NCBI RefSeq assembly: GCF_036365525.1
Contig: NC_090397.1
Span: 69,693,781 to 69,757,780, forward strand
Reading direction: 5' to 3'
Origin: Heterodontus francisci
Taxonomy: Eukaryota
DNA length: 64,000 nt
This document shows, piece by piece, positions 58,981-64,000 of this stretch. Both the position numbers and the translations under genes were made by a program. The notes below the pieces were generated by a model. That model saw nothing but the letters and a program-made list of their open reading frames with translations, did no database searches and was not told the origin of the DNA. The stretch's first letter is position 1, and the number at the start of each line of letters is the position of its first letter.

Positions 58981-60787
58981 TGTATTGGGTTTATTTTATA
59001 AGGGACAATATTCCACAGTTCACTAACACTGGGGAAATATTAATTGATTCTGTGGACAAAGTTCTTTCTTAAATCTGAATATTAATAGTTGGAACAAAAT
59101 AAATGTTTTTTTTCTGCTTAGACATGAAGCAATGTTGGCTTGATGTACTTCCCACTGTTTTAGGTTCTCCCACCTTCAATGAAGTCCTAAAGTTTGCAGG
59201 GGAGGAAGTGGAAACATCAAATTATAGTCTGTAAAATAGTGCCCTCTTCTACTGTTGGGTGACACGATGAAGGTGAAGGCTTGGATTGATTGAGCCGAAT
59301 GTAGTGTGATGGAATATAGGTATAATAGGCTTGATTAAGTAGAGTTTGGAAATAGTTAGCGTGTAATGCCTTTAGAGTTAAAGATTGGACAAATGGTTAG
59401 TTTTCAGAGTTCACTGAAGTTCCCCTTTAAGAAGTTAGAAAATATCAAGGTCCCTGTTATGAACAAGTTGGGAAATCCATTTGTGTCTCTGTTGCCTGGG
59501 GCTTGGAAGATAAAAAAAGAACATTGAAATATCCTGTCAGTAAGAGGTAGCAACAAACTTAATTGGTTTGTTCAGACAGGCCAGTTCTGGAGGTTGATTT
59601 GGAGTGCCATAGAAAGGGCAATTAACAATAAACGGAATGTACTCACAGGAACAAGAGAGGTCAAGTAAACACAATTACAAACATTTTGACCAGGTAAAAG
59701 CTCACAACTTCAAATTCCAGTAAAATATTAAATTAAAGATATGGATTTTAAAAGGAACACAGGAAGGTCACATCCAATGCAAAAGTCATACGACACCTTA
59801 GAAATAATATAAATAGAAGGTTTTGAAGCACTTAGGATTGTTGAATCCTCAACAACACTTCTCATCCTATGCCTTATTTAGTGATTTAAGGTACAAGTTT
59901 ACTTTAAATTTTGATGGATATTCTGGATATTCTAAGATAACTTTGCTGTAACATTAGCAAGGTTAAACTTTTGGATTTTATGTTAGAAATACGAATATGT
60001 GTTTTATCTCTCAGTAATATTTGATATCGTGATATATGTATCCAATTAAGAAGTTTATTACATGTTAAATTCCTTAATAAATATATAAAAGGGCGGCACA
60101 GTGGCGCAGTGGTTAGCACCGCAGCCTCACAGCTCCAGCGGCCCGGGTTCAATTCTGGGTACTGCCTGTGTGGAGTTTGCAAGTTCTCCCTGTGTCTGCG
60201 TGGGTTTTCTCCAGGTGCTCCAGTTTCCTCCCACAAGCCAAAAGACTTGCAGGTTGGTAGGTAAATTGACCATTGTAAAATTGCCCCTAGTATAGGTAGG
60301 TGGTGGGGAAATATAGGGACAGGCGGGGATGTGTTAGGAATAGGGGATTAGTGTAGGATTAGTGTAAATGGGTGGTTGATGGTCGGCACAGACTCGGTGG
60401 GCCGAAGGGCCTGTTTCAGTGCTGTATCTCTAAACTAAACTAAACTAACTAAACTAAATCGTTTCATGTAGTATTCTGCATACAACTACAAGAACCCCCT
60501 CTCTGTGTCTCTTTAAGTGGAGAGATACGTATTGAAGAGAGTTTCCCAGACCCTTATAATATCTGGGATATTTATGACTTAGCCGTAAAATATTAGAAAT
60601 AGGCTATCCAAAAGATGGTAAAATTCTCTGTATGTTTTCTTTCTTTGAGGGAAAGCTAGTGCAGTTCTTTGGACCCAAATAAGTGTCTGAGAATCTGTTT
60701 GGTTTGAATTTGATTAAAGGAGATTCGTAGGGATGTGCTCCTGATTTGGTTTAGTCCTACAAGGGGTTAAAGTCATAAATCACTTCA
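58981..60787 (+). mobile_element. Putative 5' LTR of a foamy-like endogenous retrovirus (~1.44 kb without the inserted SINE)
   Basis: Ends CA (60786-60787), then a 2-nt spacer and a PBS. TATATAA at 60082-60088, donor-like ATG|GTAAAT at 60615-60623, ATTAAA at 60713-60718, several hairpins downstream of the TATA. The left boundary (TG at 58981) abuts a CR1 and is uncertain. Confidence 0.6.
60091..60458 (+). mobile_element. tRNA-derived V-SINE/HE1-like SINE inserted in the ERV LTR
   Basis: GGGCGGCACAGTGGCGCAGTGGTTAGC head, V-domain-like GTGGGTTT..CCAGGTGCTCCAGTTTCCTCCCAC, CR1-like tail and (TAAAC)n end. Confidence 0.9.
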
Positions 60788-60789
60788 GT

Positions 60790-60809
60790 TGGCACCCAAA
60801 AACATGGTC
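60790..60809 (+). promoter_or_regulatory. Primer-binding site, tRNA-Lys-like (degenerate)
   Basis: CA-GT-TGGCACCCAAAAACATGGTC compared with tRNA-Lys PBS TGGCGCCCGAACAGGGAC or TGGCGCCCAAC. Differences include CpG decay and an A-run expansion. It lies ~290 nt before the gag ATG. Confidence 0.7.
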
Positions 60810-61083: not shown

Positions 61084-62646
61084 ATGGCTAATGAAGAAGG
61101 GATTGGCTTAATTTTTCCGTTGGGTGATCCATCAACTTGTTTTAGTAGATTACAGAATCCCATTTCGCTGCCTCAGGCGGATCAGATGGTAGTCTTTGAG
61201 ATTGATAATTTTGATGCTGATGGTTCAGTTAGAGCTCATGGTACAATTGTGTACTGACCCCCAGGAGGATGGGATAGCATGTATTCAGTGGGATAATCAG
61301 ACTGATACCCCAGACCCACAATATTCCGTAATGATAATGTGCACGCCTGCACAATTGGGTGGCCTAATGACTGGTCACGACAGGGTGGGGGTATCCATGG
61401 TAGAACTGTAAGTCCTGGGTCTCCCTATGTGTGTGGTGGCAGTGGGTCTCGGATTAGATGGCTTCCTCACAATGAGGTTCATGATCAGAATTTGCGGGAG
61501 GATTGTAGACAGCTACTGGTACATCACCTTCAAATGAAACAGGCACCTCTCCAGGCTTTTGCTACTGCTGGTGCTGCAGGCTTTCCTCTGTCTGTGGGAC
61601 AGTCAGTGCAGTCTCAAATTACACCCTTAGGCAATGTGAATCTTAACTCTATATATGCCACGTGTGGCAAGCCCAGTCCCAGTAATCAAGATAAAACAAG
61701 GTGGATTTTACATAACCTTGATAGACTTGACACTTGTTGTCACAGCTGGAGTGCTGCACATTTACGGCAGCTCCTCTCCATGATGTTAAACTCTGATCAC
61801 GTCTCCCCAATTAATAAGTGCAACAGCTGGATACAAATATATTCCCACCTCCAGACCACAACTCAGGGAGGGCATGTAATGGGCTCAATCAAAGAAATCC
61901 TTCAATATACTGTTAGGTCGAATGGTTTGGTAGCCGCCTATCGACTAGGTAAGGACTTTACACATGGCAACTGGGAAATTGCTCACGGCTGTCTGGCTAA
62001 CCAGTATCAATGGCTAACCGCTTAGACTAGCCTGCGAAGGAGCTTTGTCTGCTTATCCTGATGACCAGCAGAGGTGGGATCATGTTGAACACATTATCCA
62101 CTTGAACCATGCCTTGCTGGATCTACCCCATACTAAGCCTGCGGTCCAACCGGATCCTAAGGTTAAAAATAATACAAACAATGTCTCTGTTTCATACAGA
62201 CAGGGACAGATTAGGACAAGGACTCCTTCTCATTCCAGTTACCCACAATTGGTTCCTTTGGGCCCCCAGACGGGCGCTCTGGTCGGTCTACACCGCCATC
62301 TCGCCGGGAGCGCAAGCGGCATATTTCCCCAGAACGGTGGGAACGGTCTAGCATCACACATCGCAGAGATAGCAGGGTTAACTGGGATCCCTATGGGGAT
62401 GAACTTTACACTGGCCATTCCTATCACAGAGTAATGGGAGCTTCCAGGGCTGACAGAGGCAGGGATCAGAAAGACTCCCAACAGGATCGGCATCCAGCCC
62501 AAGGGGGTGACTGTAAGCCTTCTGATAGAACACCTAAGAGATCGGGAAAGCATGAGACTCCTAAGAGGAAGGGGCAGACTTCAGTTAAAGTCATCAGAAA
62601 TCAAGGCAGGGCTGACAGTCAGGACTCAGAAGCATCTCCACAGTGA
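61084..62646 (+). pseudogene. gag: Foamy-virus-type gag pseudogene (several frameshifts and stops)
   Basis: ATG in context ATAATGG. Capsid-like segments SIYATCGKP..W.LHN, CNSW, QGGHVMGSIKEILQYTVRSNGLVAAYRLG..NWEIAHG and DDQQRW resemble prototype foamy Gag as recalled (HIRSVTGEP..W.GRN, CLTW, HGTFPMHQLGNVIKGIVDQEGVATAYTLG..NYQLVSG, DDQTRA). The tail is Arg/Gly/Ser-rich with no CCHC knuckle. Confidence 0.85.
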
Positions 62647-63220
62647 AGGGCTGGCACCCAACCAGGATCTCTTGAATTCCCCTATGCCCTGGCAACACTG
62701 CACACTGCTGATCAGGTACAGGCACTCTTTGATACAGGAGCTGATTACTCAGTCATGGATCCTGTAATTATAAAATCTCAGTGGTCAGATTTGGGAAGCC
62801 CACTTTATCAGTTATCATTAGGGGGATTTACACAGTGTAAGGTACAGCGGATTGCCTTTTATACAATTCCTGTTACTATTTATTGTATTACAGCCACCCT
62901 GGAGGTGGGTCTAGTACCTGATTTGATTTTCCCTCTTATTATAGGACAGCCTGATATTAAATACTTCCTTAAGATCATGTCCAGGCCTGTGCAGGCATCC
63001 ACAGACCAGGATGACCGACAGAGATATATTCAGGAACAACTAGACTACACCTGCCGAGAGGGGGGTGATAAGGGTTTTTTGGAACAGCTCCTAAACAAGT
63101 ACTACCCTTATCTACAGCGTCATCCGAATCAATGTGGCAAGGTAGATATGGAATCTCACTCTCTTGATGCAGGCTGGAACAAGCCCAGGAAACAATGGCC
63201 TATTCAGGATCATAAAGCAA
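62647..63220 (+). pseudogene. pol: Foamy-like pol 5' part: aspartic protease and RT N-terminus, cut by a CR1 insertion
   Basis: VQALFDTGADYSV (D-T-G at 62731-62739) and LIIGQP. LEQLLNKYYPYLQRHPNQCGKVDMESHSLDAGWNKPRKQWPIQDHKA resembles foamy Pol as recalled (LKTLFVKYDNLWQHWENQVGHRKIRPHNIATGDYPPRPQKQYPINPKA). Confidence 0.88.
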
Positions 63221-64000
63221 ACATAAGAACTAGGAGCAGGAGTAGGCAATTCAGCCCCTCGGGCCTGCTCCGCCATTCAATACGATCATGGCTGATCTCA
63301 TCTTGGCCTCAACTCCACTTTCCTGCCCGTTCTCCATAACCCTTCAACCCATTTCTAATTAAAAATTTGTCTCTCTCCTCCTTAAATTTACTCAATGTCC
63401 TGGCATCCACTGCGCTCTGGGGTAGTGAATTCCACAGAGTCACGACCCTTTGAGAGAAGTAATTTCTCCTCATCTCTGTTTTAAATCTGCTACCTCTTAT
63501 CCTAAAACTATGACCTCTCGTTCTAGATTGTCCCACCAGAGGAAACATCCTCTCTACGCCTACTTTGTTAATCCCCTTAATCATCTTATATACCTCAATT
63601 ATCTCCTTTCATTCTTCTAAACTCTAGAGAGTAAAGGCCTAAACTGCTCAATCTCTCTTCATAAGACAAACCCCTCATCTCTGGAATCAATCGAGTGAAC
63701 TTCCTCTGAACTGCCTCCAATGTAACTACATCCCTCCTCAAGTAAGGGGACCAAAACCGTACGCAATACTCTAGGTGCGCTCTCACTAATGCCTTATTCA
63801 GTTGCAGCAACACCTCCCTACTTTTATACTCTATTCCTTTAGCAATAAATGCCAAAATTCCATTTGCCTTCCTTATTACCTGCTGCACCTGCATACTAGT
63901 TTTCTGCGATTCATGCATGAGGACACCCAGATCCCTCTGCACCGAAGCACTCTGAAGTTTCTCTCCATTTAGATAATAATTTGCCTTTCTATTCTTCCGA
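63221..64000 (-). mobile_element. CR1 LINE 3' portion inserted into the ERV pol
   Basis: ORFs 63595..63942 and 63309..63584 encode the CR1 RT C-terminus (LEYCVRFWSP, RRNYFSQRVV..WNSLP). The 3' tail lies at ~63221. Confidence 0.92.

Follow-up and report, generated by a model that had tools for sequence, protein, structure and literature searches.

Anatomy of the provirus and its foamy-type identity

The window, that is, the whole stretch of 64,000 nucleotides analysed here (Heterodontus francisci, NC_090397.1, positions 69,693,781 to 69,757,780 of the forward strand), contains the 5′ part of an endogenous retrovirus, from the target-site duplication to the beginning of the reverse transcriptase (RT). 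Its features, in window coordinates unless stated otherwise, are the following.

59301..59304, + strand: 4-bp target-site duplication (GTAG), repeated past the 3′ LTR, beyond the window
59305..60787, + strand: 5′ LTR (TG...CA), with a SINE inserted at about 60091-60459
60555..60561, + strand: candidate TATA box, proposed from its position and its conservation among LTR matches
60615..60623, + strand: ATG-GT within R, a candidate for the main donor of splicing and/or for the start of a short leader ORF
60790..60807, + strand: primer-binding site (PBS), compared with the mammalian foamy PBS
61084..62646, + strand: gag; 30 of 36 copies have the ATG at this position, and in the window copy the gene is disrupted by stops and private frame breaks
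61645..61995, + strand: central (capsid) domain of foamy Gag (Pfam PF20672, E 4.8e-8, above the cut-off)
62215..62643, + strand: Arg-rich Gag tail without zinc knuckle, including a V-x-x-I site (62584-62595) followed by a short Ser/Asp-rich peptide like foamy p3
62644..62646, + strand: in-frame TGA at the gag-pol junction, context UGA-A
62647..62694, + strand: 48 nt whose third codon positions are constrained, a candidate stimulator of readthrough
62661..62693, + strand: predicted stem of 8 bp (62661-62668 with 62686-62693), separated from the stop by 14 nt and partly decayed in the window copy
62674..62829, + strand: predicted 11-bp long-range helix, pairing the stem loop (62674-62684) with 62819-62829
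62647..63220, + strand: 5′ part of pol, with the aspartic protease (Asp at 62731-62733, DTGAD), a linker and the start of RT
63221..64000, − strand: LINE insertion interrupting pol, extending past the window end
G000:C27:69762614-69763705: 3′ LTR, outside the window, about 5 kb past its end

The 5′ and 3′ LTRs align in two blocks of 92 and 96% identity (45 mismatches over about 1,100 columns). A 4-bp target duplication was seen in two of the three LTR pairs inspected. The PBS corresponds to tRNA-Lys over its first 10 nt and continues with an extra run of As (within 60790-60807), the length of which varies among copies. Just after the gag stop, 62652-62662 is similar to the beginning of the PBS; in a second family, B, two copies (L102 and L108) match the tRNA-Lys PBS over 11 nt. 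This likeness is probably due to chance. Among copies of family A, to which the window copy belongs, U3 (59305-60090 versus L037 and L036) is about 70% alike and R-U5 and the interior about 88% alike, which suggests either LTR subfamilies or recombination.

After the LINE, pol resumes about 1.4 kb past the window end with the RT thumb, RNase H and integrase. The window copy is dead: gag is broken, with private single-base frame breaks of opposite sign upstream of the junction, about 590 nt of RT are missing, and little room is left for env. The same RT segment is missing, between two short direct repeats, in at least 18 family A copies, namely the window copy (at about 63220) and L003, L006, L012, L015, L019, L022, L028, L030, L084, L085, L086, L088, L092, L095, L133, L138 and L141. 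Lacking part of RT, these copies are not autonomous, and the shared deletion may mark a non-autonomous group or a recurrent template switch. That it could be a splice product was rejected, as the deletion ends in short direct repeats. Six loci on a single contig (L126-L131, G000:C29) carry a family A gag and no junction in the stretch examined, and are possibly one truncated copy spread by segmental duplication.

Assignment of the element relies on Gag, RT and Env. The foamy Gag central domain (PF20672) gave 77 matches in the genome, and no CCHC motif (Cys-His box) was found in the gag pieces of the window. When the natural RT ORF of a sister copy was searched against PDB, foamy Pol was the best match (E 3e-59), followed by Ty3 (4e-20). 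Foamy Env (PF03408) gave 47 genome matches (best E 4e-39), several of them downstream of A and B junctions. Also present are the YVDD motif, the SH3_11 integrase end and an env in the +1 frame overlapping the end of pol; Env has its own ATG, shared among copies. In an RT tree of 48 rows, A and B copies form a clade (100/100) that groups with the mammalian foamy viruses (FVs), a catshark sequence and P0013 (a stop-free Gag-Pol ORF of 1,687 aa, known from a single record on one Logan contig) at 85/85, or 96/86 when one row is added. The foamy-like ERVs of teleosts and the ortho-like ERVs fall outside; this is one tree search on one alignment, in which the sister group of A and B is not settled. 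The host exons are 82-93% identical to a catshark protein, as would be expected of a cartilaginous fish. By its RT placement, in a tree that includes no named lokiretrovirus, and by its foamy Gag and Env, the element lies outside the gamma- and epsilonretroviruses, ERV-L/S and the lokiretroviruses. The Spumaretrovirinae are recognized by a pol in a separate frame with its own AUG; here pol is in the frame of gag, and no shared ATG precedes the catalytic Asp.

The core of the protease matches PF00077 with E 0.039, and the A9-type profile (PF03539) matches the linker only, below the cut-off (E 0.002). Scores against five mammalian FV proteases were low. Acquisition of the protease from an orthoretrovirus found no support, z being at most 2 against four ortho-like ERV proteases of the same genome; the closest protease among those compared is that of P0013 (shuffle z about 8). 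By Gag, RT and Env, and as judged from sequence, the element is an endogenous foamy-type retrovirus. No third foamy family of this genome appeared among the scored candidates of the family and protein searches, whose numbers are lower bounds, and searches of IMG/VR and metagenomes found no relatives of the RT or of P0013.

The stop codon and the single gag-pol frame

In the window, one frame is open from 62215 to 62643, meets the TGA at 62644-62646 and resumes without shift as RAGTQPGSLEFPYA...LFDTGAD. The catalytic Asp (62731-62733) lies 29 codons past the TGA, the first in-frame ATG (62755) comes after it, and an ATG at 62684 is in the +1 frame. An earlier note on this DNA had described gag and pol as sharing one frame split by a TGA, with no pol ATG before the Asp, and had pointed to paralogous copies as the place to check the stop and the frame. 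This description is borne out both in the window and in the copies.

A DNA search for paralogs yielded 206 candidates, of which 40 were scored and the best 30 compared. Within these best 30, the stop column reads TGA in 26, TAA in two, TTA in one and AGA in one, and the spacing from stop to Asp is 87 nt in 28. Family B was found by a search with the Gag domain, its nucleotide identity to family A being 64-70%. Among 110 loci, 15 had no mappable junction; upon removal of repeats and of one segmental duplicate, 85 distinct copies were obtained, with TGA kept in 50 of the 57 that belong to family A and in 24 of the 28 that belong to family B. This retention is about that expected from an original TGA given terminal branches of 0.07 and 0.13, and the copies lacking TGA form no supported clade. 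From codon −130 to codon +199, the TGA is the only column of frame 0 with at least 40% stops in both families; many shared stops occur in the other two frames. Across the junction (window 62435-62767), the run of the +1 frame that lacks shared stops spans 116 codons in family A and no fewer than 160 in family B, and no protein-like constraint was seen there.

Counting the copies with 87-nt spacing, an in-frame ATG between TGA and Asp occurs in none of 48 from family A; five of 18 from family B have one before the Asp, all private and none shared. The +1-frame ATG at 62684 keeps its position in 39 of the 48 and 13 of the 18 copies, respectively, which excludes the earlier suggestion that an indel had disconnected this ATG from pol. 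With the commonest interval lengths of the other 29 copies, the gag ATG, central domain, tail, TGA and protease all fall in one frame. Only interval modes were used for this purpose, since whole-locus MAFFT alignments were poor in the flanks and long-range distances scattered; the pairwise count from the ATG to the central domain is very noisy, with a commonest value (616 nt) found in just five copies and a window value of 618.

Between families A and B, pol codons differ by 0.17, 0.08 and 0.46 at positions 1, 2 and 3, which is the pattern of divergence under purifying selection. Taking into account that pol was so constrained while the two families diverged, the stop must have been carried by working viruses. 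The copies sharing the stop include env-bearing ones of both A and B. On the evidence of these alignments, the TGA is a real conserved feature, present when the virus replicated and not damage to the window copy, and dozens of copies of a foamy-type fossil in this genome keep a one-frame gag-stop-pol layout.

Two other junctions of the same genome were recorded. Three near-identical loci (L191, L193 and L194, G000:C38) hold an orthoretrovirus-like ERV with a zinc knuckle, a TGA and the Asp 29 codons later, and at L186 a TAG is followed by the Asp at 38 codons.

Constraint after the stop and the route to Pol

Third codon positions differ between A and B by 0.86, at saturation, over codons −9 to −1, by 0.17 over codons +1 to +16 and by 0.50 over the rest of pol. 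A third-position difference above 0.5 is found in one of the 16 codons after the stop versus 83 of 181 elsewhere in pol. Codons +1 to +16 are the lowest of 181 windows (p < 1e-5, resampling), and the constraint persists when only codons with identical first two bases are used (p 0.0015). It runs from the stop to codon +16, its end coinciding with that of the 3′ arm of the predicted stem. As measured by this comparison of the two families, the 48 nt after the stop are under constraint. An overlapping +1 ORF was considered as its source and rejected, since the +1 frame stays open well past the 48 nt, into a region of saturated third positions.

Two RNA structures are possible on the basis of prediction. 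The 8-bp stem is paired at 0.90 in A and 0.84 in B, with one one-sided change; when the first 12 nt are removed, its predicted probability is 0.71 in A and 0.26 in B, and the junction of the window copy folds no better than shuffles. The 11-bp long-range helix is paired at 0.91 in A and 0.86 in B, the longest shared helix of eight control windows being of 8 bp. Its median duplex energy is −14.1 (A) and −9.7 (B) kcal/mol, and the best controls reach −10.3 and −8.7. This match is partly forced by the protein, as the 3′ arm lies within Leu-Gly-Gly-Phe codons. No compensatory changes, but only one-sided ones, were found between A and B in either the stem or the helix, a short hairpin competes, and there is a second candidate of 9 bp. 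A different stem (AGGGC with GCCCT), put forward in the earlier note, is disfavoured: it loses a pair in family B (0.11 paired), and its 5′ arm would lie in the mRNA channel of the ribosome.

We consider it likely, though well short of certain, that Pol is made as Gag-Pol by readthrough of the UGA. This would be the simplest route to the protease, because the UGA lies in frame for any ribosome that arrives from gag or by way of a splice into the tail of gag. Most ribosomes would stop there and release Gag, and a few per cent would insert an amino acid and go on into protease, RT, RNase H and integrase. An RNA element just past the stop probably helps: termination would be slowed by a stem beginning 14 nt after the stop, which the long-range helix, some 135 nt further downstream, possibly locks. 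In alphaviruses, the accessible passages of PMC13517186 place the start of the readthrough stimulators at +12 to +16 and give a distance of 101-154 nt between the arms. Cleavage by the protease at the V-x-x-I site, some 20 residues ahead of the stop, would free Pol from Gag; we infer a cleavage site there from the V-x-x-V that precedes the end of Gag in six mammalian foamy viruses. According to the available part of PMC5035957, foamy viruses with engineered Gag-Pol fusions replicate provided that Gag and Pol get cleaved apart. The proposal of the earlier note that this virus used readthrough or a fused Gag-Pol is supported.

Several points were weighed on both sides. The stop-free Gag-Pol ORF of P0013, which has the closest protease, was counted in favour of a readthrough or fusion layout, with its weight reduced as it rests on one contig. 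The orthoretrovirus-like ERV of this genome with TGA and the same 29-codon spacing was likewise counted for readthrough. We counted against it the UGA-A context, which is outside the strong UGA-C contexts; UGA-A readthrough contexts are given for fish and frog retroviruses in the accessible passages of PMC13517186. Also counted against it were the lack of compensatory changes in the helices together with the weak stem in family B and the shuffle-like folding of the window copy, the non-autonomous family A copies with the RT deletion (at least 18), and the case of Tca2, in which a comparable junction may not suffice for readthrough.

The most serious rival explanation, absent from the list of the earlier note, arises from a conserved ATG of the LTR R region that is immediately followed by GT. 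An exon spliced from this donor would end in AUG and join the in-phase CAG at codon +5, giving a separate Pol with the Asp as residue 25. The ATG-GT is common to both families (ATGGTAA.A is present in 24 of 41 LTR matches, A and B alike) and sits about 60 nt past the TATA box; the major donor of mammalian foamy viruses lies in R, as stated in the available portion of PMC2761275; the CAG (62659-62661) is in phase with pol in most copies; and foamy pol acceptors are described as suboptimal in the passages accessible. We nevertheless find such splicing unlikely. The pyrimidine tract of the acceptor is poor (in A 0.37, rank 55 among the 72 shared AGs; in B 0.45, rank 12 among 33). Just upstream lie two AGs that are better and would lead to an immediate stop or to the wrong frame. 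Exon 1 is not needed as a source of a start codon for Env, which has an ATG of its own shared among copies, and leader short ORFs are normal in foamy viruses, as far as the published passages available describe them. Splicing would also leave the in-frame gag stop and the constraint 33 nt beyond the AG unexplained, and an exact 19-letter junction probe for a retro-copied spliced form gave 0 matches, which is a weak negative.

Still less probable than splicing is a fresh start of Pol, by reinitiation, non-AUG initiation or a local promoter as in Tca2, with the 48 nt serving that or RNA packaging. Tca2 provides a precedent: in the accessible text of PMC2194720, its gag-UGA-pol junction, for which a pseudoknot is predicted, does not necessarily produce readthrough by itself. 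In a cichlid foamy-like ERV, pol begins at the final base of the gag stop, consistent with a stop-restart (PMC5512871, available passages), and foamy viruses are described, in the parts of the literature accessible, as having cis-acting RNA elements within coding regions. At the shark junction, however, there is no AUG, and start at the in-frame CUG of codon +15 would, by alignment, remove the first protease strand. Restart, moreover, needs no stop in the pol frame, yet the stop stands in the pol frame in both families.

That the TGA is a defect (the post-insertion nonsense mutation considered in the earlier note, parallel CpG decay of CGA, or a dead master copied in trans) draws on the decay of all copies and on the existence of the non-autonomous group with the RT deletion, but is hardly credible and, on sequence comparison, already refuted by family B, since the stop is common to two families whose divergence took place under purifying selection, env-bearing copies of each among them, and neither CGA nor CAA occurs at the stop column in any copy, where true CpG columns do show a CG/TG/CA mix.

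Probable readthrough in a foamy-type virus and comparison with known systems

An in-frame gag-stop-pol arrangement is known in gamma, epsilon and class III ERVs from the passages accessible. No report of readthrough in a foamy or foamy-like virus was present in the literature searched, the scope of which leaves aside a 2021 paper in Virol Sin on cartilaginous-fish foamy viruses. None is mentioned in the available portions of PMC5210030, PMC5512871, PMC6955096, PMC10699275, PMC8227577, PMC3386198, PMC7947760, PMC9040795 and PMC7828637, nor in the accessible text of bioRxiv 2020.12.18.423569; the supplement of the latter, the figures of these papers or the 2021 paper may show an in-frame junction. 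The published passages available on CmiFLERV, ERV-Spuma-Sca and their kin contain no description of the junction of shark foamy-like elements, and in the accessible part of a 2026 review of animal-virus readthrough signals (PMC13517186) neither 'foamy' nor 'spuma' occurs.

A separate spliced Pol is presented in the accessible passages of PMC7828637 as the most obvious unique foamy trait, one that forces RNA-dependent packaging of Pol. The combination of foamy Gag, RT and Env with a junction of orthoretrovirus style would uncouple the separate Pol from the rest of foamy anatomy, and the shark lineage would be a natural counterpart to the engineered foamy Gag-Pol fusions. If readthrough is true, a foamy member and a new candidate RNA element are added to the readthrough signals of animal viruses. 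The order of events in Pol expression becomes testable as well through the shark junction. The earlier note had wondered about an ancestral state; this remains unproven, as a separate pol ORF is found in the foamy-like ERVs of teleosts, which are more basal. These teleost elements branch deeper, and the geometry of their separate pol is unlike the tetrapod one. It is possible, but we hold it doubtful, that the in-frame Gag-Pol is the older condition, with UGA readthrough (stem plus long-range helix) in the shark and a stop-free fusion in P0013, and that a separate Pol arose later and twice, in +1 in tetrapods and as a stop-start in teleosts.

P0013 shares with the shark element a foamy-clade RT, the closest protease, a V-x-x-I shortly before the protease and Gag and Pol in one frame. 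It differs in having no stop at the junction and a Gag without detectable similarity to the shark Gag. Its sequence includes a YNLRPR motif that resembles the foamy chromatin-binding signal. Its N-terminus gave no match at 0.9 in the ESM Atlas.

The element has in common with the mammalian foamy viruses (PFV, SFV, FFV, BFV and EFV) the PF20672 domain, the Arg-rich tail without zinc knuckle, foamy RT as best PDB match, YVDD, the SH3_11 integrase end, Env PF03408, an env in the +1 frame overlapping the end of pol, and the CAGT-TGGC junction at the PBS. The separate pol that the earlier note ascribed to known foamy viruses is seen in all six mammalian genomes compared, where pol is in +1 with its own ATG 21-24 residues before the Asp, overlaps gag by 50-53 nt, and the gag stop is TAA, none of which applies to the shark element. 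Mammalian foamy Pol is made from a spliced mRNA (PMC7828637, in the passages accessible), and mammalian foamy proteases have little similarity to that of the shark element, which has DTGAD. With NviFLERV, AciFLERV, CoeEFV, CmiFLERV and ERV-Spuma-Sca the element shares, as far as their available descriptions go, a foamy-like Pol, 4-bp target duplications and aquatic hosts. From the coordinates in the accessible part of PMC5512871 we computed that in newt NviFLERV-2 pol lies in the +1 frame and shares 125 nt with gag, and that pol of cichlid AciFLERV starts on the last base of gag, in a one-base stop-start overlap.

According to the accessible descriptions, MLV, WDSV, SnRV, SSSV, ZFERV and XtERV-S have, like the shark element, gag and pro-pol in one frame with a single stop a few codons before the protease core. 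XtERV-S, a class III, ERV-L-like element with a class I Env, has a TGA junction, and SSSV and a frog ERV have the same UGA-A context, as reported in the passages available. The predicted structure of the shark element is unlike the compact pseudoknot of MLV. The shark element differs from these readthrough retroviruses in that its RT groups with the foamy viruses, its Gag lacks a zinc knuckle and its Env is of foamy type. Taken by its sequence, it would work like a gamma- or epsilonretrovirus with readthrough, but its Gag, RT and Env place it in the foamy lineage.
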